Below, one piece after another: positions 1,507 to 52,079 of a stretch of 64,000 nucleotides of DNA; position 1 is the stretch's first letter; every line of letters starts with the position of its first letter. The stretch spans positions 512,001 through 576,000 of the forward strand of contig CAWDSK010000003.1 of assembly GCA_963804995.1 (NCBI GenBank). The letters run 5' to 3'. The notes beneath the pieces are model-generated. The model was not told the origin of the DNA, searched no databases, and saw only the letters and a list, made by a program, of their open reading frames with translations. The stretch comes from an uncultured Acidobacteriota bacterium. GTDB taxonomy: Bacteria; Acidobacteriota; Terriglobia; UBA7540. A program made the position numbers and the translations under genes.

Positions 1507-3304
1507 ATGAGATTCTCTCGCCGCAACTTTCTCGGATCTTCGACCGTCGCCCTGGGTTCAGGCATCCTGGATTTCCTCACCACTCCGCTCTGGAGATGGC
1601 CGGGCGCTCCCCTTCTCCACGCGGCCACCGCGCCCGACCCCGACGCGTCCTCCCCCGTCACCTACGTGGATGTGGCCAAGGAAGCTGGCCTCAATGTGGA
1701 GAACGTCTGGGGGGGAGTGAAGCGCAAGAAGTACATTGTCGAAGCCAAGGGAAGTGGGGTGGCGTTCTTCGATTACGACCAGGACGGCTGGCTCAACGTC
1801 TACCTGACCAACGGCATTCGGATGCCGGGCGAAGAGCCCAATCCCGGCGGGCAGACTCCCACCCAGCATCTTTTCAAGAACAACCGCGACGGCACCTTTA
1901 CCGACGTCACGGAAAAAGCCGGCTTGACGCGCACCGGGTGGGGCACCGGCGTGGGCGTGGGCGACTACGATAATGACGGCTGGGACGATCTGTTTTGCTG
2001 CTACTGGGGGCACAACGTCCTATGGCACAACAACGGCGACGGCACCTTTACGGACGTCACCAAACAGGCCGGCCTGTGGGAGGAGCGCGTACGGTGGGGT
2101 ACCGGCTGCACCTGGCTGGATTATGATCGCGACGGGTACCTTGACCTCTTCGTCTGTAATTACATCGAGCTCAACATTCAAAAAGTTCCTACGCCCGGAC
2201 AGACCGGCTATTGCCAGTGGAAAGGAATCCCAGTGATGTGTGGTCCCCGCGGCTTGCCCGCCGGGATGAATATCCTCTACCACAATAACGGCAACGGGAC
2301 GTTCACGGACGTCTCGAAAAAGGCCGGCATCCTCAAGCCCGGCCCCCGCTACTCGATTACCGCCGTCTCCTACGATTTCGATAACGACGGCTGGCCCGAC
2401 ATCTACGTGGCCATCGATTCCGAACCGAGCATTCTCTTCCATAACAAGCACGACGGAACGTTTGAGGATATCGCCGTCATGGCCGGCTGCGCTTACAACG
2501 AGGACGGTCAGGAACAGGCCGGCATGGGCGTGGGCGTGGGAGATTACGACTGCGACGGGTGGCTCGAACATCTACAAAACCAATTTCTCTGACGATACGC
2601 CGGACCTCTATCACAACAACGGCGACGGCACGTTCACCGACGTGACCTTTGCCGCCGGCTTGGGCGTGAATACGCAATACGTGTGCTGGGGCGCCGGATT
2701 CATTGACTACGACAACGACGGGTGGAAGGACATTTTTCAGGTCAATGGTCACGTCTACCCCGAAATCGAGGAGTACCACCTGGACGTGCTGTTCCGAGCC
2801 CAACGCCTGGTCTATCGGAACCTCGGCAATGGGAAGTTCAAGGATGTTTCGAAAGATATGGGCCCCGGAGTGATGGAGAAATTTTCCAGCCGCGGCTGCG
2901 CCTTCGGCGACTACGATAACGATGGCGACATGGACGTGCTGGTCTTGAACATGAATGATTTCCCCTCGCTCCTGCGCAATGATGGGGGCAACAAACTGAA
3001 TTGGATCAGCCTCAAGTTGCTCGGGACAAAGTGCAACCGCACGGCCATCGGGGCGCGCGTGCGCGTTGTGACGGGAAAACACGCGCAGATCGACGAGGTG
3101 CACTCGGGAGGCAGCGTCATGTCGCAGAGCGATTTGCGGCTGCACTTTGGTCTGGGTCAGGCCACCCAGGCGGACGTGATCGAGGTGAAGTGGCCCACCA
3201 CCCAAAAGGTGGAGCGCTTCACCAATATCCCGGCCAATCACTTCCTAACGATTAAAGAAGGAGCAGGAATTATTAAGACAGAAAGTCCGCCAGCGAGCGT
3301 TTAG
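1507..3304 (+). CDS. CRTAC1/ASPIC-UnbV family protein (FG-GAP-like repeats, Tat signal), split by a +1 frameshift near 2568
   Basis: SRRNFLG Tat motif, repeated DYDNDGW.D motifs, C-terminal UnbV-like SQSDLRLHFGLG. Removing one A from TGGCTCGAACATCTAC joins both ORFs (WLDIYKTNFSDD). Confidence 0.85.
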
Positions 3305-6877: not shown

Positions 6878-7213
6878 TTGCCTGACGATCTCAAGGATTC
6901 CATTCTTTCGATATTCGAGGCCTCACTGGATGCCCAGTTGCGGGCGGTTCGCCGTCTCCGCGGCGGTTCCCCAGCCCCCGCCCCGAGGCCGCGCCGCACA
7001 GGTCTGTCCCAAGTGGACATGGCGTACGACATACTCAAGAAGGCCCGTACCCCCTTGCACATTTCCGAACTCCTGGCGCGCCTCCGCGCCGCCTTCTACG
7101 TCACCGTCGATCGCGAGAGCCTGGTCTCTTCGCTGACCAAAAAAGTCGCCCGCGGCGATCGCTTCCTGCGTACCGGGAAGAACACTTTCGGCTTACGTCC
7201 GGAGGCCCGATGA
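6878..7213 (+). CDS. Winged-helix (HARE-HTH-like) protein carried inside the IS
   Basis: GGAGG RBS, TTG start; AYDILKKARTPLHISELL...FLRTGKNTFGL pattern; ATGA overlap with the transposase. Confidence 0.7.
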   Translation: MPDDLKDSILSIFEASLDAQLRAVRRLRGGSPAPAPRPRRTGLSQVDMAYDILKKARTPLHISELLARLRAAFYVTVDRESLVSSLTKKVARGDRFLRTGKNTFGLRPEAR

Positions 7214-8589
7214 CTCTGTTCGCCGCCTGGTCGGAGATCGTGGCGGACTGGGCCCCCACTTTTCCCCAGCAGCGCACCCTGCAGCGCGCCGTGCGCCAGG
7301 CCCTGGGCGCCTTGGTCTGCGTGGGTCGACGCTGTCTTTCGCGTATCCTCTGGACCCAGGGCCGCCAGCAGCGCAGTTGGTCGAGCGAATACTTTCTCCA
7401 CTCGCGTTGTCACTGGGAACCGCAGACGTTGTTTGCCGGCGTCTGGCGCCGCGCCTTGCCCTATTGTCCCGGCCGCCTGGTGGGCGTGGCCGTCGACGAC
7501 ACCCGCCTGCGCAAGACCGGCCGCGCCATTCCCCAGGCGCGTTATCACCGCGATCCCCTCTCGCCCCCCTTTCATGTCAACCTCCTGCGCGGCGTGCGCT
7601 TTCTGCAAGCTTCCCTGCTGCTGCCCCTGCATCGGTACGCCCCCGCCAGCTGCCGCGCTCTGCCCGTGCGCTTTGAAGAGGCGGCGCCGCTGAAAAAGCC
7701 CTCCCGCAAGGCGAAAGAGGAAGCCTGGCAGGAATATAAAAGGATGCGCAAGCTCCACAACCTCTCGCAGCGTTTTGTGCAGAGCGTGGCCCCCTTGCGC
7801 CAGGCGCTGGATGCGGCCGGGGGTGGGGCCAAGCTGCTGGTGCTGGCTCTGGATGGCAGCTTCTGCAACCGCACCTGTCTGCGCGCCCCCCGCGATCGCA
7901 CCGAGTTGATCGCCCGCGCCCGCAAGGATGCGCGCCTCGGCTTTCGCGCTCCCCAGCCTTCTCGCCGCTTTTACGCCCTCTCCACCTTTACCCCCGAACA
8001 GGTCCGGCAGGACGAGTCCCACCTCTGGCAGCAAACCAAGCTCTTCTACGGAGGCAAGCGCCGCCGCCTCCGTTATAAAGAGGTGTCGCAAGTCTACTGG
8101 CGTCGGGGCGCCGGCCAGATCCCCCTGCGGCTCTTCGTCGTGGCTCCTACCCCCTATCGCAAACGGAAGAGCTCCAGACTCTACTACCGTCAACCGGCCT
8201 ACCTGCTGACCACCGACCTGCGGCACTCTGCCCCTCAGTTGCTGCAAATCTACTTCGACCGCTGGCAGATCGAAGTCAACCACCGCGACGAGAAGGAGAC
8301 GCTGGGTGTCGGACAAGCCCAGTTATGGAACGTTAACGCCGTGCCCAAGCAACCTGCCCTGGTCGTGGCCGCCTACAGCGCGCTGCTCCTGGCTTCTCTC
8401 CAAGCCTTCGGCACCGAGCGTGGCACGGCCTATCAGGCTCTGCCCCGGTGGCGACGCAAGGCCCACCGCCCTTCCTGCCTCGACCTCGTCACCCTGCTGC
8501 GCCAAGAAATGGTCGACCACCCGGAATGTCCCCAATCTCTGGGCTTCCAACTCACCGACCGCGCCCTCACCCACGCCGCTGATGCATAA
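7210..8589 (+). CDS. DDE transposase (IS4 superfamily / IS701-like)
   Basis: AVDDTRLRKTG, LALDGSF and YFDRWQIEVNHRDEK (Y-x2-R-x3-E-x6-K) motifs. Confidence 0.9.
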   Translation: MTLFAAWSEIVADWAPTFPQQRTLQRAVRQALGALVCVGRRCLSRILWTQGRQQRSWSSEYFLHSRCHWEPQTLFAGVWRRALPYCPGRLVGVAVDDTRLRKTGRAIPQARYHRDPLSPPFHVNLLRGVRFLQASLLLPLHRYAPASCRALPVRFEEAAPLKKPSRKAKEEAWQEYKRMRKLHNLSQRFVQSVAPLRQALDAAGGGAKLLVLALDGSFCNRTCLRAPRDRTELIARARKDARLGFRAPQPSRRFYALSTFTPEQVRQDESHLWQQTKLFYGGKRRRLRYKEVSQVYWRRGAGQIPLRLFVVAPTPYRKRKSSRLYYRQPAYLLTTDLRHSAPQLLQIYFDRWQIEVNHRDEKETLGVGQAQLWNVNAVPKQPALVVAAYSALLLASLQAFGTERGTAYQALPRWRRKAHRPSCLDLVTLLRQEMVDHPECPQSLGFQLTDRALTHAADA

Positions 8590-22594: not shown

Positions 22595-23743
22595 CTACTC
22601 GGGAAAAGGCGCCCCAGCACGGACGATACGAATGCGGTGGTCCGTGTATGAGGAGTGCGAGCCCGGTACTTCAACCTGCTGCATATGGCAGAGCACACAG
22701 TTCTGCTTGCCAACTGGGCAGGGCTTCCCCGGCTGAGCTTTGCTCGACGTTGCGCCAGCCTGCGAGGCGTGACAAGACAAGCACTTGGCGTCGTAGGCCG
22801 CAGTTTCCTGCACGAGAGCACTGTGAGGGTTGTGGCAGAACGTGCACCGGCTGCGCTTGTCGTTGGGATTCCAGCAGCGGCTCTTGGTCAGGCGATAGGG
22901 CTGCGAAAGCACGGTACGGATTCCGCGCAGGGCGCCATTTTTAACGTCCTGAAAATGATGACACTCACCGCAGAACTCCATCTCCTCGTCGGGCTTGAGC
23001 CGCCCGGGATCAAATATCTGCGCATGTTGGAGATTCCCGGCTTTCATGGCCGCAGCGTGCTTCGCTCCAGGTCCATGGCAGGCTTCGCAGGTAATCCCAA
23101 GGGCCAGACGGTCACTATCAAGAGGAGCATCGACGCCGTTCACTGTGCCATGACATCCCAGGCAAGACCGGATGCGGTCAGATGTGAGACGGTCTCCAAG
23201 GGCAGCTTCGAGCGATGGCGCCGTGGCCGTCGGGGGGCTGCCCACAAATAAGAGCTTCCCCATTCCCGAGTAATAACTGACCGGCACCTGGTAGTAGCCA
23301 CCATTGTGCTGAATCAAGTAGCTCTGGTGAACAATCCCCGTCCCCACAGCCAGGACAACGGGCTCCGTGATTTTGCCGTGCGTGTCACTTACCGAAAAGA
23401 GGACCTGCTTGCCCTCATTGCTGATCAAATATGTATAGGGTCCTTGCTCAACGCTTAATGTGGGATGCTGGCGGAGAATAGCCGATTCGGCCGGCCGCGT
23501 GGCGGCATTCGCCATGTCGGTTATCTTTTGCGTTGCATGTATCGCACCGTGACATTCCGCACAAGTCTGCCCGCCGATGTAGTCCGCAGGTTGGGCGGTG
23601 GTACTGTTAGACTTCCAGGTCACATTCTCATCGCCGCCGCGGCTTCGCGCCCAAGCGTGTAAGGGCCCAAACTCGCCCAGAACGCTACTCACTGCAAACG
23701 CGGCAATGGCCAGGATTACAAATCTTCTGCTTGCGATCTGCAT
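22595..23743 (-). CDS. Secreted heptaheme c-type cytochrome (c554-like motif set)
   Basis: Seven CxxCH; YIGGQTCAECH, GITCEACHGPGAKH, TDHRI; signal peptide. Confidence 0.85.
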   Translation of the reverse strand: MQIASRRFVILAIAAFAVSSVLGEFGPLHAWARSRGGDENVTWKSNSTTAQPADYIGGQTCAECHGAIHATQKITDMANAATRPAESAILRQHPTLSVEQGPYTYLISNEGKQVLFSVSDTHGKITEPVVLAVGTGIVHQSYLIQHNGGYYQVPVSYYSGMGKLLFVGSPPTATAPSLEAALGDRLTSDRIRSCLGCHGTVNGVDAPLDSDRLALGITCEACHGPGAKHAAAMKAGNLQHAQIFDPGRLKPDEEMEFCGECHHFQDVKNGALRGIRTVLSQPYRLTKSRCWNPNDKRSRCTFCHNPHSALVQETAAYDAKCLSCHASQAGATSSKAQPGKPCPVGKQNCVLCHMQQVEVPGSHSSYTDHRIRIVRAGAPFPE

Positions 23744-23911
23744 CGAAAAACCCCCGGTATGACGAAATAGTTGAGGTCTCGGAGAAGAAGGTTGACAATC
23801 TCCGCCCAAACCATACGCTCGTTTCCCAATCCGCGTCAACCGTTTCTCCTGTAGGCTTGAATCCCAGCCCACTTCCCAATAGAATCGTGGTCCTCAACAT
23901 GAAGGGATACG

Positions 23912-32940: not shown

Positions 32941-33576
32941 ACCCCGGAGGGGTCCAAGATCATTAGCCGTGGGTGAAACCCACGGAAATGGTCACCCCAA
33001 AAATTACCCAACCCCGAAGGGGTTGAATGATGTCGTCTTACACACAGATCCTTTATCACATCGTTTTCGCGACCAAGGATCGTCATCCTGCACTTTCGGA
33101 CTCACGGCGCGATGATCTTTTCAAATACATGCATGGTGTGATTAAGAACAAACACTGCCGGCCCGTTTGGATCAACGGCGTGAAAGACCATGTCCACATT
33201 CTGCTGAGCCTCCACCCGACGGTCGCGCTGGCGGAACTGCTGAAGGACGTCAAGGTTGCGTCATCGGTTTGGATCAAAGGAAATAATGTATTCCCCAACT
33301 TTGTAGGCTGGCAGGAGGGATATGGGGCTTTCACATTTTCCCTCCGTGAGGAACCGGCACTGATCGAGTACCTCAAGGCGCAGGAGGAACACCACCGGAA
33401 GACATCGTTTCTGGATGAGTACCGGAAGTTGTTGCTTGATGCCGGAATCAAGCTCGATGAAAGGTTTTTGCCTTGAGTGGGTTCGACCCCTTCGGGGTCG
33501 ATTGGGATTTTTGTTGCGTGGTCAGGGTCCGTAGGTTGCACCTACGGCTAATGCTATTGTCCCCCTTCGGGGAACA
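32941..33576 (+). mobile_element. IS200-like/REPtron-like unit: Y1 transposase between inverted triple-hairpin flanks
   Basis: Left: ACCCCGGAGGGGT, TAGCCGTGGGTGAAACCCACGG, ACCCCGAAGGGGT. The right flank is an imperfect inverted copy. Confidence 0.75.
33027..33476 (+). CDS. tnpA: IS200/IS605-family Y1 (HUH) transposase
   Basis: YHIVFATK, DHVHIL, WQEGYGAF, EYLKAQEEHH. Confidence 0.92.
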   Translation: MMSSYTQILYHIVFATKDRHPALSDSRRDDLFKYMHGVIKNKHCRPVWINGVKDHVHILLSLHPTVALAELLKDVKVASSVWIKGNNVFPNFVGWQEGYGAFTFSLREEPALIEYLKAQEEHHRKTSFLDEYRKLLLDAGIKLDERFLP

Positions 33577-34404: not shown

Positions 34405-34704
34405 ATGATTACTGTCGTTGAGGTTCTTCATATACTTATTTGCATCTTGCTGGTGGGAGCGGTGCTCCTGCAGGGCGGCGAGAATGCGGATATCACTGCG
34501 GCCTTCGGGGGAACGAGTCAGGCGGCCTTTGGCCCGCGCGGCTCGGTCACCCTGCTGGCCAAGATTACCTGGGTGCTGGCAGCGATCTTCATTTTCACTT
34601 CGGTTACACTGGCCGTGCACGCCTCGAAGGGTGGCGTCGGCTCGATCATGGAGCATGCGCCTGTCAAGACCGCGCCGGCTGTACCCGCACCCGTGAAGAA
34701 ATAG
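34405..34704 (+). CDS. secG: Preprotein translocase subunit SecG
   Basis: Two TMs, VLLQGG..AAFGG..FG.RG..L.KIT; follows tpiA. Confidence 0.92.
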   Translation: MITVVEVLHILICILLVGAVLLQGGENADITAAFGGTSQAAFGPRGSVTLLAKITWVLAAIFIFTSVTLAVHASKGGVGSIMEHAPVKTAPAVPAPVKK

Positions 34705-35030: not shown

Positions 35031-37008
35031 TTATCGGACTTGATTCCTTATCGCTCCGCTTGGGGCAACGCCAAGACGATTGCCTCTCGACAACCGCCCG
35101 GCCGTCGACAGATTCATGGGAGAAGCAATAGGGCTATAAGTGGCGGGGTTGTGGTCTTTGCCGTGGCAGGTGAGGTAGCAGGTGCCGCTGCGGGAGCCGA
35201 GGCGCTGATATTGCAGGATGCCGCCGCTGCTGGGCCCCACAATGGTGCGGTCAAAATCAATGAGCATGGGCCCCTGTGAGGCATGCGGAGCGTGGCAGGT
35301 GGAGCAGGCCGCATTTGCGCCACGGACGTGAATGGAATGGTAGGTGAAGCTCTGGTCCCGCAGGACGCTTCCCTCCACGTCATGACACTTGTCGCACAGA
35401 GCGTAATTGGTCACCGCGTAGGAGACGCCCGTCGACGAACCTCCGGGCGCCGCCGGCGGCGGTTCTAAGGAGCTTTCCCGTTCGAGCAGATGCGGCAGGT
35501 TCGAGCCGTGCGGTCCTGCAGGGCCGCTGGATGTTCCCAAGTTGCGCCCTGTGTCGTTGTTGTGGCAATCGCTACAGTAGATGTAAGTGACGGCCGAAAG
35601 TTGGCGGCTGGTCATGGTAGCTCCGCCCGGCGTGATGGGCTGCGGTCGCAGACTGGGGACGTCACCCCCCAACCCCGTGGCCAAATTCCGGGGGCGTGTC
35701 ACAGGATGAAAGGAGGGGCTGAACTGGAACTGCATGCGCGTGTTGAAGCGGTTGGGACTGCTCGCCTCGAACATGCGCTGGGGATTGCGCCCGTAACCCA
35801 CGCCCACCACACTGAAATCGGTGGATTGAGGCTTATTCCCGCTATCGGCATGACACTTAAAGCAGATCTCGTATTCGTTGTTGCTTTGGAGTATGTGTGC
35901 ATTGCCAGTGGATTGGCCTTTGACACCTAGCAACGACCCCTTCACCAGCGGCGGCTGCGCCGATACGCTGTTGGCGAAGTGGGGGTTATGGCAGTCGACG
36001 CACGCGGCGTGGCGGGGCGTGCCACTCCCCGTTTCGGGAAGCGGGTGCTGCGTGGAAGTCGGACTCTCCGCAGCATCGTGGACCGTGGGCGTGATTTGCA
36101 CCGGGTGCCGGTAAGTTTTGGCGGTGAATTCGCCTTCGACGTTCAGAGTGGTTACGCTCCCATTGTGGCACTGGTAGCACGTGGACGATTCCACAAACTT
36201 GACTAACCTCTGGGCGGTGGCGGGAGCGTGCGGCCGATGGCAGCTTTCGCAGCCATTCTTATTAACCCCGACGTACCCCGTGTGCGCGCCTTGCGCCGCG
36301 GTATATTTCACATCCTCGCGCGGGTCGGGCGGCATTCGGTGTACGGAGTCTTCCCAGCCCGCCTGGACGTGGCAGGTTAAGCAGAGCGCGGATTCGGAGT
36401 TCGGGGTCACAAGGAATTTCCAGAACCGTCGGATCCAGATTTTCCTGGTGAGGATCGTGGCAACTGGTGCACTGTACCTTTCCTGCGCCATCCAGGCGGA
36501 CCGGGCCGGTGGCGGTAAGGGGTTTGATCCCACTTGTGTGCGCAGGAGCAAAACCAAACGGATGGTCGTCTGTGAATCCCTTGTTCGCTGCCAGGTTGGA
36601 AGCAGAACTCGCCGGAAGGGCATACGCCGAGCCTTGTACAAATCGAAGCTGTCCATCATTGACGGTGTCGCCCAGGGCAATCGTCCCATCGTGGCAACTC
36701 AGGCACAGCTTGGAGACATCCTGCGGCTGAATAGGCGCGACGCTGGACGCTTGCGTCGTACTGGAGTAAGCCGGGAACTGCGCCGTTGACACTTTCTGGT
36801 TCCACAAATAGCTCCCGGGGTTCGAGTTGTGCGAGGTGTGACAAAAGGCGCAGGGGTCGCGGCCGGAAACCGAGCGTACGGTGGCTGGCGAAGAAGCCCG
36901 AAAATCGTGCTTGGAATTCAGCACAGCAGATATCTTATCGCCTCCCAACGCCGGCAGTACCATGGCCGCCCAGAGCGCCAGCAACGAGATGTAATTCACC
37001 CTACGCAA
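35031..37008 (-). CDS. ~658-aa multiheme cytochrome c (11 CxxCH + 1 CxxxCH) with OmcE-like N-terminal module; +1 frameshift near 36420
   Basis: Joining ORFs 36262..37008 and 35031..36689 by removing one base gives DPTVLKFLVTPNSESALCLTCH; signal peptide present. Confidence 0.85.
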
Positions 37009-38154
37009 CTACTGTCCTCCGCTGGGAGCTGTACCATCCGGCCGCAAACGAAACATCTGCACGCGGCGGTTGAACCCATCCGCCACGTAAATCCGGTTTT
37101 CGCTGTCCAAGGCGATGGCGGTGGGGAGGAAGAACTCTCCGGCCCCGGCTCCAGTTGAACCGAAGACAAATAATAAATGACCTTCCGCGTCGTAGACCTG
37201 CACGCGGTCGTTGCGGCCCTCAACTACGTAGACCCGTCCATGCTCGTCCACAGCGATACCCTTGGCCTTGTCGAAATCGCCCGGGCCGCTGCCCGCATTG
37301 CCAAATGCGGATAGAAACTTCCCCTCGGGGTCAAAGTGCTGGACACGGAAATTCAACGAATCGGTGACCCAGAGGGAGCCATCGGGGGCCACGGCGATGT
37401 AGGTCGGATAATTGAACTCGCCGGGTCCATCCCCACGTTCGCCAAAGCGGCCCACCACCTTGCCCTCGAGCGTCATCATCACCACTCGCATGGCAACGGT
37501 GTCCACGACGTAAAGGCGGTCGCGCTCGCTGTCGACGGCGATTCCCGTCGAGCGCTTGAAGATGCTCTCCTGGCGGTCCAACGCGCCCAGCGCCCGCAGG
37601 TACTTGCCTTGGGGATTAAAAAGGAAGATGCGCGCCCGCACGGCGTCGGAAACATAAATCCGCCCCTGCGCATCGCAGGCCACCGCTATGGGCGCGAGGA
37701 AAGGATCGGAATCGGGCGGGTGGAATTCTTGATACCGCCGGCGCGCCGGGTCAAATACGTGCAGGACTCGCTCCTTGGTATCGGCTACCAGAATCCTTCC
37801 TTGCGGGTCCACCGCGACGCCGTTGGGCGCCAGCATGGCTTTCTGCTGCTCCTCCAGCCCGATGATCGCCTTCAATACCCGCTTGCCCCAGGAGGGCTTG
37901 CCTTTAACATCGGCGGCGCTGCGCAGCTCGCCCACCCAGTCCACCGCGCCCAAGGCGATGGGATTGATGGGCGATTTCGGACTATCGGCGACCATCAGCC
38001 GCCCCAGCCCAACCGCCAGAAAGCAACAAACTGCCACCACTCGCGGGAGCTTATTGCTGTAACGGCGGTCTCTGACCGCCGCCTTTTGGTTCAACAGATT
38101 CCGGCGGTCAGAGACCGCCGCTACAGCAAGGCGAATTGGGTTAAGGCGCGACAA
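37009..38154 (-). CDS. NHL-repeat 6-bladed beta-propeller protein
   Basis: G..PGEFNYPT.IAV..DG.L.V.DS.N.RVQ.FD repeats; start uncertain. Confidence 0.88.
   Translation of the reverse strand: MSRLNPIRLAVAAVSDRRNLLNQKAAVRDRRYSNKLPRVVAVCCFLAVGLGRLMVADSPKSPINPIALGAVDWVGELRSAADVKGKPSWGKRVLKAIIGLEEQQKAMLAPNGVAVDPQGRILVADTKERVLHVFDPARRRYQEFHPPDSDPFLAPIAVACDAQGRIYVSDAVRARIFLFNPQGKYLRALGALDRQESIFKRSTGIAVDSERDRLYVVDTVAMRVVMMTLEGKVVGRFGERGDGPGEFNYPTYIAVAPDGSLWVTDSLNFRVQHFDPEGKFLSAFGNAGSGPGDFDKAKGIAVDEHGRVYVVEGRNDRVQVYDAEGHLLFVFGSTGAGAGEFFLPTAIALDSENRIYVADGFNRRVQMFRLRPDGTAPSGGQ
38054..38129. repeat. REP-like long hairpin
   Basis: GCTGTAACGGCGGTCTCTGACCGCCG ... CGGCGGTCAGAGACCGCCGCTACAGC. Confidence 0.8.
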
Positions 38155-38163
38155 CGTTGACCC

Positions 38164-40038
38164 TCACAATATCTTGAAGTCTCTCGTTATACGAAAGAAG
38201 TAGCGGTTCAGGAGGTTGCCTGTCTGGACGGGAACGGTTATGTTCTCGATCTCGTAGGATCCGAAGCCAACCTGTATTCTGATTTTGCCCACACGGTAGC
38301 GAGCGCTGATATCCGCTGTGCGGAATTTCGCTTGCGAGCTGCTGAGCAGGTCCCTTTCCGACATGTAATCGGCCGCCACATCCAATTGCGCACGCACCCG
38401 GAGCGCGGCCGTCGCCGTGTCGACGCGCGAGATCCGGTTGAGCAAGGGGGTGGCCACCAACTCGCTCAAGGGCAGCGGAACGCTCAGAAACTGCTCGGCG
38501 TTAATGATGGCGGGAAATAGCGCGCCCGCGCCCACTAAGTCCTGGTGACCCGCGCTCAGCGACAACCGTTGGTGCTGGACCTGCGCCGCATAGTTCGTCG
38601 TATCCGATTTGATGTCGCCGCTTACGCCCAGGTACTCCAAGCGAGCCCGTTCGGCGGTTCCCCGCACATACCAGCCAAAGAGGCGGGATGATTCCGCCTG
38701 CAGGCGCAGGCTGCGGGTGGAGGAAAATCCGCCGAGTTCATCGACGAGGTTGTACCTGGAATCCATCCCGGTAGCAAGCAGACGAAGGCGACCGGGGTCG
38801 CCCCAGCCAACTCTCCCCTGCAGGTCATTGGAGAACGTTGTCGGGTGGTGCCCCAGGGTCGTCCCCAGCAATTGGTAGTGGCCGGTGTATGTCCCCCCCA
38901 ATTCCAGCCCCCGCCAGGTTCTCCCAAAAGAGACGCCACTCAGAGAATCGAACTCGGAGGTCTCCGCCTCCGCCACCCCTTCGACCGCCGTTACACGATA
39001 TTCCTGAACTTGTTGAAACAGGTTCACGCTGGGGATGACCTGATAATTCACTCCCGCCCCAAGGCTATTCGAAGTGAACGCGGGAACCTGAATCAGGCTG
39101 AGGTTGCTGCCAGTGCCCTCTGTTCCGGTCAGGGAATTGGCACCACTCTGGGAGATGTTGGTGAAAGTGTAATAGTAGTTCGAGGAAAGTTTGGGCGTGT
39201 GCTTGATCTGGAGTTGGGAAGTGACATAAGCGTCCGTGAACTGCCCGGCGGGCTGGCCCAAAAAACTTTCCTGCTGCCATTCCAGGCGATCCGCAATGTT
39301 TAACCGGGCCTTGTCGTCCCAAAACTTGCGTGAAACAAAAAGGTCCTGCAATTTCAGATTTTCCCGGAACGGACTGGAAAGAGCGAAAGCCCCAACCGCG
39401 TTGGTCGTGGTGGAGAAGTCGTTGAAGCCGCCGTTCCATTTCCAACTCTTCCACTCGTCGGAAGCATCGATACTGAGCTCGTTCAGGCGGTAGCTCGAAT
39501 TGGTGAGCGAGGTGGGCAGTTGCACTTCGTTGGCTTGGTTAAGGTAGCGGACGGTCAGGTGAGGCAGGCGGCGGGTGCGAAGTTCCCACGTGAATCCGAA
39601 TGAGGAGGTGTCTGAATTCTCACCAAAACCCGTGCCATTGGCCCCGTACTCACTCTTCCGGTAGAAAATCTGGAGCGGAAACGAGCGTTCGGGCAGGAAA
39701 GATGCGCTGAAACCGACATCATAGACGTTGTCTCGAAACCCGCCCAGAGCTACCGCGTTTGAGGCGTGCTCGCCGCTGTAGTTAATGGTGAAGGGAATGA
39801 ATTTGGGATTCTTCAGGTACCCGCCCGCGAGAAGGTTCCAATCAAAGCCGGCGGTCGAATAATCGGAAGTATTGTTGGGACTGGAAGGCGTGAATAACGA
39901 CGTGTCGGTGGTTTTGCTGAGGTCGGCGCCCAGGGCGCCTTGCAATCGCCAATGTTCAGGGGTCGGGTCCTGTGCGAAACTCGGCAGCGCGGCCGCTAAG
40001 GCAATCGTCACGAGTTGAATTGCCAGTCTTGCTCTCAT
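38164..40038 (-). CDS. Predicted outer-membrane beta-barrel protein
   Basis: 624 aa, signal peptide, no Cys, S/T/N/Y/F/G-rich alternating strands, ends RYFFRITRDFKIL. Confidence 0.7.
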   Translation of the reverse strand: MRARLAIQLVTIALAAALPSFAQDPTPEHWRLQGALGADLSKTTDTSLFTPSSPNNTSDYSTAGFDWNLLAGGYLKNPKFIPFTINYSGEHASNAVALGGFRDNVYDVGFSASFLPERSFPLQIFYRKSEYGANGTGFGENSDTSSFGFTWELRTRRLPHLTVRYLNQANEVQLPTSLTNSSYRLNELSIDASDEWKSWKWNGGFNDFSTTTNAVGAFALSSPFRENLKLQDLFVSRKFWDDKARLNIADRLEWQQESFLGQPAGQFTDAYVTSQLQIKHTPKLSSNYYYTFTNISQSGANSLTGTEGTGSNLSLIQVPAFTSNSLGAGVNYQVIPSVNLFQQVQEYRVTAVEGVAEAETSEFDSLSGVSFGRTWRGLELGGTYTGHYQLLGTTLGHHPTTFSNDLQGRVGWGDPGRLRLLATGMDSRYNLVDELGGFSSTRSLRLQAESSRLFGWYVRGTAERARLEYLGVSGDIKSDTTNYAAQVQHQRLSLSAGHQDLVGAGALFPAIINAEQFLSVPLPLSELVATPLLNRISRVDTATAALRVRAQLDVAADYMSERDLLSSSQAKFRTADISARYRVGKIRIQVGFGSYEIENITVPVQTGNLLNRYFFRITRDFKIL

Positions 40039-40155
40039 TGTCTCTCCGCTTGTTCACGGGCACGTTGCCTTCCAAAGATGCAGATGCAAACGAAACCAGA
40101 GTCCTGAGTTAGGAGTTCGCGATCAAAGTCGCCCTTTCAATTTATTCCAGGGCGA

Positions 40156-40400
40156 CCCCCTCACCCGACTGCGGGCCGAAGCTGAACTTGTTTACTGCTC
40201 CCAGGTACCCCTTCGGAGGGAGTAGGCCCGGCCCGCCCCGGCTGATGAAAACGCCGGTTGCGATCCACCCTCTCCCCCAAGGGGGCGAGGGCAAAGAAAA
40301 ATAAATCAACTCTCCCCTCGCCCCCCTTGGAGGAGAGGGCAAAAAAATCAAACCAACTCTCCCCTCGCCCCCTTGGGGGAGAGGGGCCGGGGGTGAGGGG
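40156..40400. repeat. Cluster of REP-like hairpins (CCCTCTCCCCCAAGGGGGCGAGGG type)
   Basis: Three such hairpins bounded by CCCCTCACCC / GGGTGAGGGG. Confidence 0.75.
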
Positions 40401-40553
40401 GTTCGCGAACAATCAACAAACTTCTGACCCCGGACACCAGGGTGATGCGGACCAGCCGACAGCGGAGGCCGGAGGTAGGTTGCCCAGACCTCCACCGCCG
40501 GGAAAATAAGAATGAACTTCCGACTCAGGACACTACCGCCCCCTCGATGGGTA

Positions 40554-41327
40554 TTACTTGTGGCAGTAGGTGCACCAGTTGGTCGTCGCAACGAGCAAAG
40601 CTCGTCCGTAAGGGAAAGTAGTGCTCGCCCCTGCCGACGCCCCATTGTGAGGGTCATGGCAAGTCGCGCACTCCATCATGTAATTGTTGCCGTAAAGGGG
40701 TACATATCCGTTCGCGTCAACCCCATTAGCGCCGGCTGGAGCTGTCATCGAGGCTGCTGCCGCCAGGGCGGCGGTATATTGGAAGTGGACAGGGTGCGAC
40801 TTGGTCAGGTCCGAGATCGTCATGGTACTCGGCATGAAGGTTGCGCCGCTGACACCTAAACCAGTGCTCGTAAAAGTTGAGCCAGTGGCTGGAAGCCCCA
40901 ATGTCGACTCATAGAAGCTGGCAACCGCGACCGTACCATCGTGGCAGCTTAGACACAGGTTGCTGACCGTCAGCGTAGTAATGGTGTTGTCAGTCCCGAG
41001 CTCGGTGGGGCCGGCAGCCGCACCCAGGTGAGCGGTGAAGGTGTCGCTGCTGTAAACGCCGTAGGTCACTGAGGGGGAAGAAATAGTGTGGTTCCAGAGC
41101 AAATAACCCGGCGCCGAAGCAGAGTTATTTGCTGTTTTGTGCGTGATGTGGCAAAAGAAGCAAAGATTGGTTGAGGGAGCACTGGTTGCCGAGCCGAAGG
41201 TATAGCCGGACGTCAAATCGTGCGGTGTACCGACGATGCTTGCTTTGGTAGCCTGCTGGGCCGAGGCGGTTACGGTCAGAGCCGTCACCATCATCATCGC
41301 CAGTAGGAGTCTTTTTAGATTTGTCAT
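40554..41327 (-). CDS. OmcE-like tetraheme cytochrome c, paralog 2
   Basis: Signal peptide; HDL, CFFCHITH, LWN, CLSCHDG, HPV, ECATCHDPH, terminal CTYCHK. Confidence 0.85.
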   Translation of the reverse strand: MTNLKRLLLAMMMVTALTVTASAQQATKASIVGTPHDLTSGYTFGSATSAPSTNLCFFCHITHKTANNSASAPGYLLWNHTISSPSVTYGVYSSDTFTAHLGAAAGPTELGTDNTITTLTVSNLCLSCHDGTVAVASFYESTLGLPATGSTFTSTGLGVSGATFMPSTMTISDLTKSHPVHFQYTAALAAAASMTAPAGANGVDANGYVPLYGNNYMMECATCHDPHNGASAGASTTFPYGRALLVATTNWCTYCHK

Positions 41328-41459
41328 AATGACCTCTCGATAGAATTTTATTACTGAGGCCGCAGAATGTTTCTCCGCGGTTGAGAAAAAACTTGCTTAC
41401 CACCTGCCTTCAAAAATCATGAGGACGCGCCAAATACCCTGGCGCCCCCTCGCTGGGGA

Positions 41460-42248
41460 TTAAGTGTGGCAGTAAGTGCACATACCGCCGCTAGCCGCAT
41501 AAGTGAAAAAGAACTGCCGGGCAAAGGGCATAGTACTGCCGTTCCCTACTGACGCCCCATTGTGCGGGTCATGGCAAGTCGTGCATTCCAACATGTAATT
41601 GCCGCCGTAAAGGGGTACTGCTCCGGCCCCGTCAACCGAATTAGCGTTGGCCGGAGTTTTCATCGCGGCCGCATTCGCCAGGTTAGTGGTATATTGGAAG
41701 TGGACAGGGTGCTGCTTGGTCAGGTCCTTAATCTCAAGTCCGTTATACGGAAACATCTTGGTGGTATAACCCAACGCCACCCCTGGAAGCCCGCCTACGT
41801 TCTCATAAAAGCTATTCATTGCGACCGTACCATCGTGGCAGCTCAGACACAGGTTGCTGGTCGTCGCCGAAGTGACGGAGTTGCTAGCCCCGAGGTCAGT
41901 GGGTGGGGCGGCGGTGGCCGCAGCCAGCACAGCGGTGAACGAGTCGCTGCTATAAACGCCGTAGGTTGGTGTGGAGGAGAGAGTTTTGTTCCAGAGTAAA
42001 TAACCCGGCGCCGAGGAAGCGACATCCGCGGTCTTGTGTGCGATGTGGCAAAAATAGCAAAGATTGGTCGTGACCGGCGCAGTTACACCGCCTTTGGTAT
42101 AGGTAGCTATAGTTCCAGTGTGTGCGGTCCAGGTCAAATCGTGCGCTGAATGGACGATGCCTGCTTTTGTAGCCTGCTGGGCCCAGGCCGTTGCGGTCAG
42201 AGCCCCCAGCACAAGCATCGCCAGGAGAAGTCTTTTAAGAATTACCAT
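41460..42248 (-). CDS. OmcE-like tetraheme cytochrome c, paralog 1
   Basis: Signal peptide; HDL, CYFCHIAH, LWN, CLSCHDG, HPV, ECTTCHDPH, terminal CTYCHT. Confidence 0.85.
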   Translation of the reverse strand: MVILKRLLLAMLVLGALTATAWAQQATKAGIVHSAHDLTWTAHTGTIATYTKGGVTAPVTTNLCYFCHIAHKTADVASSAPGYLLWNKTLSSTPTYGVYSSDSFTAVLAAATAAPPTDLGASNSVTSATTSNLCLSCHDGTVAMNSFYENVGGLPGVALGYTTKMFPYNGLEIKDLTKQHPVHFQYTTNLANAAAMKTPANANSVDGAGAVPLYGGNYMLECTTCHDPHNGASVGNGSTMPFARQFFFTYAASGGMCTYCHT

Positions 42249-42329
42249 AATCACCTCTCAACAAAATTTCCTTCGTGAAGCTGGTGAATGTTTCTCTGTA
42301 CTTGCGGAAAAGCTTTCTCACCTCCTTTC

Positions 42330-43436
42330 TCATGGCTTTCGCGGCGAGCCCGGATGGTCGCCGCCCAGGAACTGAAAAATTTGCACGCGGGAATTGAGCG
42401 CATCCGCGACGTAAACGCGGTCCTGCCTGTCAATGGAGATTCCCAGGGGCAGGTTAAAGCCACCCGGCGCCTTGCCGAAATTGCCCACGAACATCAGGAC
42501 CGTTCCTTTGGGATCGAAGATCTGGACGTTGTTGAAGGCGGCGTCCACCACCCAGATGTTGCCTTCACTGTCGAACGCCACGCCCTTGGGCCGCGTAAAG
42601 TAGCCAGGCCGATCGCCACGCCCGCCAAAGCGCCGCACAAATTTGAAGTCGGGGGAGAAAATCTGGACGGAGCAGCTTCCCGTATCGGTCACCGCAATGT
42701 AGCCGTCCCGGTTCACCCCCACTCCGATCGGATAGTTGAATTCCCCGTTTTTAGTGCCCCGCTTACCTACCGTGGCGATGTTTTGCAGCGTTTCCATGTT
42801 GTAGACCAGGACCTGATGGAGGTGGCTATCCACCACAAAAAGCCTGCGCCGGTTTTCATCCAGCGCCAGCAGCGCAGGGTTCTGGAGCGCCGGGGTCTGC
42901 CCGATCATGGCTTGCAAGTGGCCATCGCGGTCGAACTTCAGGACGCTGTGCAGCGACGGGTCGGAAACGTAGATATTGTCGTGGCTGTCCACGGCCAGGC
43001 CGAGGGGCATCTTGAGCACAATTCCCCGGTCACCTTTGATTCGGATGACTTGGTGATGATCCTTGTCCAGCACATAAAGTGTGGCGCTCTGGGCCGAGGT
43101 GAGCAAAATTCGTCCCTTGGAATCACTGGCCACGTCGGAGGCCCGCTTGAAGAACTCGACTCTGTTGGGGTCGGGATTGCCCACCATGCGATCCACCATA
43201 CTGAGCTTCTTGCGCGGCTCGATGTCGAAGTTGTTGGAAAACATCTCGAGGAACCGGACGCGCGGCTTGTCGGGAGACAGAGGCCAAACCATGGTGGGCT
43301 GGTCAGACGCGGAATAGCCAGGCGGCGCCTTTTCTTTGCCTCCCCCTCCCGCCACCCCCGGCGCGCCCCAAAGCATTACCAGGACGGCGGCCAAAACTAG
43401 GCCGGTTCCATTTAACTTCGGCAGGCTGACTCTCAT
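42330..43436 (-). CDS. NHL-repeat 6-bladed beta-propeller protein
   Basis: VWPLSPDKPRVRFL N-terminal motif, GEFNYPIGV, FTRPKGVAFDSEGNI, NSRVQIFQ. Confidence 0.9.
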   Translation of the reverse strand: MRVSLPKLNGTGLVLAAVLVMLWGAPGVAGGGGKEKAPPGYSASDQPTMVWPLSPDKPRVRFLEMFSNNFDIEPRKKLSMVDRMVGNPDPNRVEFFKRASDVASDSKGRILLTSAQSATLYVLDKDHHQVIRIKGDRGIVLKMPLGLAVDSHDNIYVSDPSLHSVLKFDRDGHLQAMIGQTPALQNPALLALDENRRRLFVVDSHLHQVLVYNMETLQNIATVGKRGTKNGEFNYPIGVGVNRDGYIAVTDTGSCSVQIFSPDFKFVRRFGGRGDRPGYFTRPKGVAFDSEGNIWVVDAAFNNVQIFDPKGTVLMFVGNFGKAPGGFNLPLGISIDRQDRVYVADALNSRVQIFQFLGGDHPGSPRKP

Positions 43437-44347
43437 GGGTTCACCTTCTCTCCAGGCTTCGCCGGGGTATCCGGCATCTTCTTGGTTTGCTGCCCCGTTG
43501 GCGGCGCTTGGCTCTTGTTTTTGGCTGCCTTTTGCTCATCGATTATTTGGTGGCAGGTGGTGCAAACGTCCCGACCGCCCTTCACCGAAACAATGAGGTT
43601 TTCGTCCCCCGAGGCATGATGAGCATGGCAACTCAGGCACGACATTTTTTCTCCCGCGCGCAACAGGTCCGGTACCACGGCAACCGGATGGGTCACCCAG
43701 GGATGTCCGAAGCGCTGCGTGGGGTCAAGATCGATTTTCGGAATGGCGTCAAAATCGGCCTTCGAGATTTTCTGTGAGCCGAAAAGGGTTACCGTCTCGG
43801 CCGGGGCTTGGACATCGGCGTGGCAGGCGAGGCAGAGTGCATTTCCCGCCGCCCGTGTCTGTGCCTTGAATTCCGAGGAATGTGGATCGTGGCAAGTCAG
43901 GCACTGGCCACTCTTAAAGGGGCCGTGCAGCACAGGGTCCTTGGGGGCCTCATGGCACATCACGCAAAGATCGCCCCCGGTGGCGACCAAAGTGATGGTT
44001 GTCTTGTTTTTTTCTGACGTGGTTTGGTGGCAGTTCTCACACCCCATCCCCACTGCCGTGTGTACGAATTTCCCCTGGTTTTTGTCGGGATGGCACTGGA
44101 GGCAGGTCTCGCTTTTCAGGCCCTTGGTTTCAACAAAGGGATGCTCCGTGGAGTCGGCAGCAGAAAGTTTGCTAATCCTCAAAACCAAAACTGCCGATAT
44201 AACGAGAAGGAGTAAAAGTCCGCGTAGGGGCCCAACCGCTAACCGAATTCTAATAGAATTACCCGCTTGTCCCATTGTCCCAAGACCTGCTGTGCGTGGC
44301 ATAGAGAGCAAGGGATTCGCCAAAGGCGTGAATATTTTGTCTGCCAA
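43433..44347 (-). CDS. Heptaheme c-type cytochrome
   Basis: CLQCH, CENCH, CVMCH, CLTCH, CLACH, CLSCH, CTTCH; hydrophobic signal/anchor; true start may be downstream (~44302 or ~44275). Confidence 0.88.
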   Translation of the reverse strand: MADKIFTPLANPLLSMPRTAGLGTMGQAGNSIRIRLAVGPLRGLLLLLVISAVLVLRISKLSAADSTEHPFVETKGLKSETCLQCHPDKNQGKFVHTAVGMGCENCHQTTSEKNKTTITLVATGGDLCVMCHEAPKDPVLHGPFKSGQCLTCHDPHSSEFKAQTRAAGNALCLACHADVQAPAETVTLFGSQKISKADFDAIPKIDLDPTQRFGHPWVTHPVAVVPDLLRAGEKMSCLSCHAHHASGDENLIVSVKGGRDVCTTCHQIIDEQKAAKNKSQAPPTGQQTKKMPDTPAKPGEKVNP

Positions 44348-44754: not shown

Positions 44755-44841
44755 GCGGAAGTGGCGGAACTGGCAGACGCACCAGCTTGAGGGGCTGACG
44801 CTCGCAAGAGCGTGGGGGTTCGAATCCCCCCTTCCGCACCA
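44755..44841 (+). tRNA. tRNA-Leu (GAG)
   Basis: Acceptor GCGGAAG/CTTCCGC, anticodon loop TTGAGGG, long variable arm, GGGGG-TTCGAAT-CCCCC, encoded CCA. Confidence 0.95.
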
Positions 44842-48475: not shown

Positions 48476-48979
48476 ATGACCTACCACCGATTTGAGGACC
48501 TTCCTGTCTGGCAAGCGGGCTTGGAACTGGCCCGGCGAGTGTATCAGCTTACCGCTGGCCCGCCCTTCCGCCGGAATCGCAGCCTGCGCGACCAAATCGA
48601 GCGGGCGGCCGTCTCCGTCTCGAATAATATCGCCGAGGGTTTCGAGCGGGGTACGACGCAGGAGTTGCTGACCTTTCTCTACATTGCCCGCGGCTCGGGA
48701 GGAGAAATCCGCTCCATGCTCTGTCTGCTGGCCACGCTCGAGGATTTCGCCCATCTCAAATCTGAAATTTCAAATTTGAAATCCATGGCCGAAGGCGTTT
48801 CCCGCCAGTTGCGTGCCTGGGCCGATTCCTTGCAGAATTCCCCTATCACCGGTCAGCGGTATCTCACCGAAAAGTCCCGGCGCGCCAGCAAGGCCCGCAC
48901 TGAGCGTGATGAATTCCTAAGGAGCCTTCAAGATATTCGAGAGGGAAAAACGCCAGGTAGGAATTTACCTAACACGTAA
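48476..48979 (+). CDS. Four-helix-bundle protein (23S rRNA-IVP/S23 family), intact copy
   Basis: FEDLPVWQ, LRDQIERAAVSVSNNIAEGFER, FLYIARGS.GE.RS. Confidence 0.9.
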   Translation: MTYHRFEDLPVWQAGLELARRVYQLTAGPPFRRNRSLRDQIERAAVSVSNNIAEGFERGTTQELLTFLYIARGSGGEIRSMLCLLATLEDFAHLKSEISNLKSMAEGVSRQLRAWADSLQNSPITGQRYLTEKSRRASKARTERDEFLRSLQDIREGKTPGRNLPNT

Positions 48980-51565: not shown

Positions 51566-52079
51566 ATGACCTACAACCGATTTGAGGATCTTCCTGTCTG
51601 GCAAGCGGGCTTGGAACTGGCCCAGCGAGTGTATCAGCTTACCGCTGGCCCGCCCTTCCGCCGGAATCGCAGCACAAATCGAGCGGGCTGCCGTCTCTGT
51701 CTCGAATAACATCGCCGAGGGTTTCGAGCGTGGTACGACCCAGGAGCTGCTGACCTTTCTCTACATTGCCCGCGGCTCAGCGGGAGAGGTCCGCTCCATG
51801 CTCTGTCTGCTGGTCACACTCGACGATTTCGCCCATCTCAAATCTGAAATTTCAAATTTGAAATCCATGGCCGAAGGCGTTTCCCGCCAGTTACGCGCCT
51901 GGGCCGATTCCTTGCAGAATTCCCCTATCACAGGTCAGCGGTATCTCACGGAAAAGTCCCGGCGCGCCAGCAAGACCCGCACTGAGTGTGATGAATTTCT
52001 AAGAAAGCTTCAGAATATTCGAGAGGGAAAAGAGCCGGGCGGGAATCTACCTAACACGAAAAGGCAGGGGGACACCTGA
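51566..52079 (+). pseudogene. Second four-helix-bundle gene, frameshifted by a net 8-nt deletion near 51673
   Basis: AGCACAAATC versus AGCCTGCGCGACCAAATC in the 48476 copy; otherwise highly similar. Confidence 0.85.

Follow-up and report, generated by a model that had tools for sequence, protein, structure and literature searches.

A seven-gene operon in DNA of an uncultured acidobacterium (contig CAWDSK010000003.1) belongs, judging from its sequence, to the already described omcE/uet family of gene clusters, and we put at about 0.6 the probability that it makes a chain of hemes, joined head to tail, beyond the outer membrane, a structure predicted here from genes and models. The operon lies on the minus strand at positions 35031..44347 of the window, by which we mean the whole 64,000-nucleotide stretch that was analysed, and reads, in order, 7-heme cytochrome, NHL propeller, two 4-heme cytochromes, 624-aa protein, second NHL propeller and large cytochrome (g7 to g1; Table 1). 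The number, order and orientation of the genes had been given in a preliminary description made from the letters alone, and they stand. Its total of 27 heme motifs is also right, although only 26 of these (7 + 4 + 4 + 11) are CxxCH, the last being a CX3CH (CYLTCH); chance alone would yield about 0.06 CxxCH in 1480 residues. All seven N-termini, described there as export-signal-like, look by eye like plain Sec signals, and none has a lipobox. The same description presented the 12-heme cytochrome as a single gene, which in this assembly occupies two reading frames, and it overlooked this frameshift, a sigma-54-type site and the OmcE domain that heads the 12-heme protein.

Both tetrahemes are OmcE homologues. 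Each shows the OmcE-type motif order noted earlier and has a single significant match, the OmcE filament 7TFS (E 1.6e-9 for g4; E 2.4e-6 for g5). A profile of 120 tetraheme homologues significantly matches only the two solved OmcE filaments, 7TFS (5e-24) and 9YUQ, the OmcE of D. soudanensis (8.5e-20), and its eight ligand histidines are kept in 119-120 of 120 rows. An apo AlphaFold2 (AF2) model of g4 has a predicted local distance difference test score (pLDDT) of 76, with a weak C-terminus, and Foldseek returned for it 7TFS as the single match (template modelling score, TM, 0.52/0.64), such that the proposed homology is borne out by both sequence and fold. The two copies share 57-58% identity and have separate leaders, a 194-nt direct repeat at 78% identity spanning the leader and 5' end of g5; the g5 leader also aligns with those of loci L119, L122, L123 and L128. 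Since a single tetraheme is found in all nine close metagenome loci that span the region, the duplication is local. Relative to close loci, the tetraheme is 44-59% identical, the NHL genes 74-91% and the 12-heme gene 62-85%; the tetraheme is thus the fastest-changing gene, as would be expected of an exposed subunit.

The cluster type itself has already been published, and the sharper point concerns filament assembly. A profile of 67 12-heme rows covers all of 7TFS at E 2.2e-49 (9YUQ, 4e-39), a better match to OmcE than the tetraheme profile attains, and the C-terminal part of the protein resembles OcwA (6I5B, E 7e-12). Across 87 12-heme sequences, 28 histidines (12 proximal, 16 others) are conserved at 0.87 or more, with H60 and H260 present in every one. 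We infer that a CxxCHxxH motif uses its second histidine to ligate the heme before it. If H60 is the donor to the preceding subunit and H260 closes heme 4, then the only place where the protein could join a chain is its open heme-4 end. In a quick tree (109 rows), all 44 N-domains of 12-heme proteins belong to a single clade of 47 rows (Shimodaira-Hasegawa-like approximate likelihood ratio test, SH-aLRT, 95). Five loci have a split form of the gene, with an OmcE-like tetraheme and a separate C-half (E 1e-68 to 1e-81). The C-half has lost the closing histidine in L163, L170 and L172, where a ninth histidine has appeared in the tetraheme immediately ahead of heme 4; the closing histidine is retained by the C-halves of L075 and L111, whose tetrahemes show no ninth. 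The closing ligand is therefore supplied exactly once in 5/5 split forms. In the quick tree, L163 and L170 cluster with the N-domains of 12-heme proteins; L172, L075 and L111 are not among its rows.

A complex model of the native tetraheme and 12-heme pair from L119 docks the two head to tail with a score of 0.68, against 0.00 for the best of three controls; the pass mark was reached by 116/157 solved and 2/215 mismatched pairs. Its runs share at least 88% of contacts, the partner pLDDT is at least 82, and the interface sets tetraheme residues 183-185 and 258-267 (the C-terminal heme region) against residues 53-68 of the 12-heme protein. Together, the OmcE head, the kept donor histidine, the protein's own closed heme 4, the split forms and the complex model make this an in-operon filament-cap candidate, and on these models we predict that it caps one end of an OmcE-type wire. 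Several acidobacterial homologues (G441:C161, G287:C85, G454:C17, G289:C25) have a single in-frame TGA, possibly encoding selenocysteine.

The nearest published system is the omcE cluster, whose minimal form comprises two multiheme cytochromes, two propellers, OmcE and a large barrel (Petersen 2026, PMC13712944; this and the other papers are cited from the available portions of their texts), a set that the window's genes match. As in the omcE cluster of Desulfuromonadia (7TFS, 9YUQ), the tetraheme is homologous to OmcE, has four CxxCH and four distal histidines, and is accompanied by a large barrel, two propellers and two further multiheme cytochromes (one of them frameshifted here). The window differs in its two tandem tetrahemes and in its barrel, of 624 aa as against 720-807 aa in the Geobacter-type loci fetched; and because its propellers g2 and g6 have no lipobox, whereas those of the Desulfuromonadia form are lipoproteins, the window cluster is a relative rather than an exact copy of that form. 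Moreover, the OmcE-headed 12-heme gene belongs to the window operon, whereas three Geobacter-type genomes (L163, L170, L172) hold the split form at another locus, and no 12-heme gene was found within the 20 kb fetched around the Geobacter-type omcE loci L164, L166, L167 and L171. This absence fits the statement in the available text of PMC13712944 that omcE operons show no tip candidate. That paper asks how OmcE filaments start and stop, describes the ideal anchor as having nine histidines and four hemes, and proposes Dsoud_2415, which lies outside the omcE cluster; Acidobacteriota is not among the five phyla that its available text names for the cluster. The second Geobacter-type loci (L163:11001-14559, L170:4788-10171 and L172:6658-10248) each read NHL, ninth-histidine tetraheme, 7+1-heme C-half and triheme, and their tetrahemes are candidate orthologues of the published anchor candidate.

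The uetABCDEFGHIJ cluster of Tenderiales and Gallionella (Eddie 2022, bioRxiv 10.1101/2022.05.06.490989; PMC10734462) shares with the window, matched by architecture and counts, a tetraheme (UetA), a 28-strand barrel (UetC), two NHL proteins (UetH/I) and, as the last gene, an 11-CxxCH cytochrome (UetJ, described as extracellular). Its authors suggest that UetA and UetJ may interact or polymerise; the available text of the preprint gives no other domain in UetJ and does not mention OmcE. The window locus is without the peptidyl-prolyl isomerase (PPIase, UetB), trihemes (UetDEG) and cupredoxin (UetF) of uet, and has the 7-heme gene instead. Closer in host is EET1, a 'porin-scaffold-cytochrome system' of peat Acidobacteriota (Fiorito 2026, bioRxiv 10.64898/2026.05.27.727921), with hosts in Terriglobales and UBA7540 and with a porin, a scaffold and cytochromes; OmcE-like cytochromes of 8-13 hemes occur among the four systems of that paper, which also reports expression in peat. 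The window cluster is, by the main-text description of EET1, probably of that type; EET1 is modelled as an Mtr-like conduit, and the word 'nanowire' does not occur in the main text. Other porin-cytochrome complexes have been reported in Acidobacteria (PMC7399161). The surprise that the preliminary description saw in a lineage not known for nanowires thus falls away, with uet and acidobacterial porin-cytochrome clusters containing OmcE-like cytochromes already in print and the module present in many phyla. MtrAB (6R2Q) is alike in its large plug-less barrel beside paired-CxxCH cytochromes, but the window operon has no decaheme, and Mtr includes neither OmcE-domain proteins nor NHL propellers. 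Membership in MtrAB/MtoAB was rejected: g7 scores 59 bits against a DmsE cut-off of 192 (its similarity to DmsE/GSU2203 being weak and far below cut-off), and the barrel has no match in Pfam or NCBIfam.

The AF2 model of g3 (113 sequences) is a 28-strand barrel without a plug (pLDDT 90.9; predicted TM, pTM, 0.76), bearing out the earlier call of an outer-membrane barrel; its best fold match is MtrB (6R2Q_B, TM 0.50, 8% identity) and its fold matches are outer-membrane barrels throughout. A C-terminal Phe ends 76/113 homologues; at E 0.001 the barrel has 134 representatives, the nearest Atlas clusters being mostly acidobacterial; by sequence, the g3 profile finds weak matches in the PDB (best E 0.012). 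A 32-strand estimate from hydrophobic periodicity peaks is superseded by the model. In many relatives a PPIase-like gene (SurA/PrsA-like in L022) precedes the barrel where the window has its 515-bp spacer, and the repetitive extragenic palindromic (REP)-like repeats of the spacer, which are C/G-rich, lie at this position.

Pfam confirms both claimed NHL propellers (PF01436, E 6e-31 and 1e-30), and NHL genes form two neighbour-tied classes in test loci outside the training set. Those beside a free tetraheme score better with the g6 class in 64/68 cases, and those directly before a 12-heme gene score better with the g2 class in 49/60. By a simple pattern, a lipobox is also missing from 60/63 NHL proteins of acidobacterial loci. 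A 28-nt inverted-repeat element lies in frame at the 5' end of g2, and the range of g2 orthologue lengths (359 to 407 aa) suggests repeated insertion there. The 7-heme protein g7 (PF09699, E 2e-29) has 14 histidines conserved in 12/12 aligned rows, including two before the sixth heme; its last heme has no downstream histidine, as in most first cytochromes of such clusters. We predict that g7 is a periplasmic or in-barrel relay. A role for g7 as a histidine-deficient chain starter was considered and is not claimed, its histidines totalling 2n.

If these parts act together, transcription would depend on sigma-54, and the proteins would be exported by Sec and receive heme from the cell's cytochrome c maturation system. 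Each NHL propeller would escort or dock its own OmcE-domain neighbour, and the OmcE-like tetrahemes would polymerise, with the 28-strand barrel as outlet and socket. H63 of g4, the second histidine of the heme-1 CxxCHxxH, would ligate the open heme 4 of a neighbouring subunit; the 12-heme protein, donating H60 and closing its own heme 4 with H260, would join only the heme-4 end and stop the chain, which the 7-heme cytochrome would link to the periplasm. A place for the 12-heme protein at the distal tip is somewhat likelier than one at a basal anchor. The chain would more likely serve to pass respiratory electrons out to solid or humic acceptors, electron uptake being a less likely alternative. 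More tentatively, and at a little under even odds, the UetJ-type 12-heme protein would be an OmcE subunit with a closed heme 4 that docks on the open filament end and adds eight hemes, i.e., the tip or terminator so far missing from the picture of OmcE-type nanowires in many phyla; every OmcE-domain protein would have an NHL propeller of its own, and the nine-histidine tetraheme anchor candidate of Desulfuromonadia would be a split-off N-half. In the literature searched, with subscription papers and closed supplements outside its scope, we found neither a published cap or tip proposal nor an OmcE domain in a UetJ-type protein.

Several observations weigh against a capped head-to-tail chain. 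The 12-heme protein has three conserved histidines beyond 2n+1; a ninth histidine of the tetrahemes (H80) is found in 119/120 rows, is missing from g5 and OmcE, and complicates histidine counting; and g7, with 14 histidines for seven hemes, has no deficit. The ninth-histidine cases in L163, L170 and L172 are probably kin, so they perhaps represent one event, and some histidine occurs in the same 9-residue stretch in 10/115 free tetrahemes. The complex model was built on a pair from a related contig, not on the window proteins, and its pass may reflect likeness to 7TFS. One OmcE heme is ligated across subunits, the donor histidine not being specified in the available texts (PMC9473688, PMC12954529), and there is dispute over what cytochrome filaments do physiologically (PMC11077965).

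Both the uet and the EET1 authors, moreover, model a porin-cytochrome conduit (bioRxiv 10.1101/2022.05.06.490989; 10.64898/2026.05.27.727921). In such a short, fixed device the 7-heme cytochrome would sit in or under the barrel, one or two tetrahemes would serve as adaptors, and the 12-heme protein would be the surface terminal reductase or oxidase, with the same head-to-tail interface and no long filament. The barrel's best fold match being MtrB and the OcwA-like C-part of the 12-heme protein would suit this arrangement, and the L119 complex model suits a heterodimer equally well. However, the tetraheme retains a donor histidine and an open terminal heme, as do the two solved OmcE filaments; a conserved leader of its own precedes it, and the window holds two copies; and four Geobacter-type omcE loci have no 12-heme gene within the 20 kb fetched. 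We regard the conduit as a serious but less likely alternative to an extended chain.

If the frameshift in g1 is real in this strain, then the 12-heme protein is lost, and the system, though real in relatives, would be decaying here with its 12-heme gene a true pseudogene. Frame one (37008-36262) encodes the signal peptide and three CxxCH, and frame two (36689-35031) eight CxxCH and the CX3CH; relative to 10/10 aligned orthologous loci, the window has one surplus base at about 36421-36427. Seven of the eight close loci with a whole 12-heme gene have a single 651-652-aa ORF (open reading frame), and one close locus (L128) is split too, at a different place. In favour of decay are the presence of the base in the assembly, this second split, and the position of the g1 shift away from the TCGA motif that marks most other shifts. 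Nevertheless, both halves are 75-85% identical to full-length close orthologues, with all motifs kept. A survey with 628 query ORFs from relatives, counting close matches over most of the ORF length, gave 135 intact loci and 18 shifted rows (three being g1 and two a single locus), i.e., 14 others. Hence 14/149 testable orthologous loci in the genome are shifted, atpG and gltB among them, although some of these shifts could lie in the relative rather than in the present genome; nine of the 14 fall within 31 nt of TCGA, against a background of 13%. Because other orthologues in the same genome are also shifted, the extra base is likely an assembly error, and a decaying system is improbable. The clustering at TCGA suggests that bases are systematically miscalled at this motif, which may be methylated, and TCGA also occurs at the overlap (about 2560-2600) of another split ORF pair in the window, 1507-2592 / 2462-3304.

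Least probable is a periplasmic multiheme redox enzyme or electron store, for which the three extra conserved histidines of the 12-heme protein could form a metal site and to which the absence of lipid anchors would be suited, since the operon contains a large plug-less barrel, with a homologue (E 5e-6 or better) in 15/19 relative loci, and the closest solved relatives are extracellular filaments.

The cluster type occurs in many phyla. Matches are found in 20/28 same-genus genomes, and the complete cytochrome/NHL order is present in 17/20 fetched relative loci, the other three ending at contig ends. A genome scan confirmed at least 597 of 638 stretches; its best 78 loci, to which the following counts refer, span Verrucomicrobiota, Planctomycetota, Calditrichota, Bacteroidota, Ignavibacteriota, Pseudomonadota and others. 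The 12-heme gene is present in 59, the free tetraheme in 58 and both in 43, with an NHL gene directly before the 12-heme gene in 52/59. Among 251 sampled Acidobacteriota genomes, at least 26 have the 12-heme gene. An extended heme chain in these organisms would bring OmcE-type wiring to an abundant uncultured lineage of soil and peat, where, it has been proposed, extracellular respiration of organic matter competes with methane formation (bioRxiv 10.64898/2026.05.27.727921). The 12-heme protein would supply a specific, conserved, in-operon cap candidate whose interface and polarity are predicted, and the split homologues would allow it to be tested in cultured Geobacter-type strains. Two loci have labels at odds with their sequences: the cluster on a contig labelled Thermoplasmata archaeon (L118) is nearly identical to a Nitrospinota one (L099; short tree branches), by misbinning or transfer, and L041, labelled Chlamydiota, groups with the acidobacterial set. 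Elsewhere (L169:10587-17772, L182:10421), OmcE-like tetrahemes follow NHL proteins of 900-1060 aa and precede 46-heme and 23-heme cytochromes.

The acidobacterial host proposed earlier is borne out, and it belongs to Terriglobia: PGK, GAPDH and TPI of the window lie in 90% clusters with members named 'Terriglobia bacterium'. The genome (7.55 Mb, 9 contigs, 92% complete) contains rpoN, four PF01578 matches for cytochrome c maturation, and 23 ORFs with at least three heme motifs; among these are DmsE-type decahemes and QrcA/NrfH-like proteins, possible sources of electrons for the locus. The pattern TGGC-N7-TTGC at 44322-44308 we take, from the consensus, to be a putative sigma-54 (-24/-12) site; such a pattern lies 5' of the first cytochrome gene in 12/23 related loci, against a background of about 1.4% per 400 bp. 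Because of this site, g7 probably starts at ATG 44275 rather than TTG 44347.

Table 1. Features of the operon and its surroundings (window positions)
Feature	Position	Strand	Basis or remark
Putative sigma-54-type (-24/-12) promoter site, TGGC-N7-TTGC	44308..44322	-	pattern shared with related loci
g7: 7-heme paired-CxxCH cytochrome	43433..44347, likely start ATG 44275	-	7 CxxCH, PF09699
g6: NHL beta-propeller, class adjoining free tetrahemes	42330..43436	-	PF01436
Leader and 5' end of g5, duplicated at 41212-41405	42133..42326	-	194-nt direct repeat
g5: OmcE-like tetraheme, copy 1	41460..42254, likely start ATG 42248	-	7TFS match, 4 CxxCH
g4: OmcE-like tetraheme, copy 2	40554..41327	-	7TFS match, family profile, AF2 model
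515-bp spacer with REP-like inverted repeats (40268-40385)	40039..40553	.	PPIase-like gene here in many relatives
g3: predicted 28-strand outer-membrane beta-barrel, no plug	38164..40038	-	AF2 model
g2: NHL beta-propeller, class preceding 12-heme gene	37009..38154	-	PF01436; in-frame palindrome 38054-38129
g1: UetJ-type 12-heme cytochrome, N-terminal OmcE domain and 8 hemes; predicted filament cap	35031..37008	-	frameshifted at ~36421-36427
tRNA-Leu(GAG), upstream flank, context only	44755..44841	+	tRNA scan

The intergenic gaps, in reading order, are -4, 75, 132, 515, 9 and 0 bp, and the operon is flanked by secG (34405-34704) on one side and tRNA-Leu on the other. A tRNA-anchored island was considered and is not supported, the GC content of the locus being 0.565-0.612 against 0.58 for the genome and 10/10 related loci scanned having no tRNA. 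Elsewhere in the same genome there are a DmsE-type decaheme fused to a GSU2204-like region (L207:5313-9005, 1231 aa) and a 19-heme cytochrome with a cytochrome b domain (L204:5211-8267), and the window itself has a separate 7-CxxCH cytochrome gene (22595-23872), unrelated to the cluster by BLAST. By eye, the similar ORFs at 48476-48979 and 51582-52079 are presumably of four-helix-bundle type; we take 33027-33476, between pgk and tpi, to be an IS200-like transposase and 7210-8589 to be a further transposase-like ORF.

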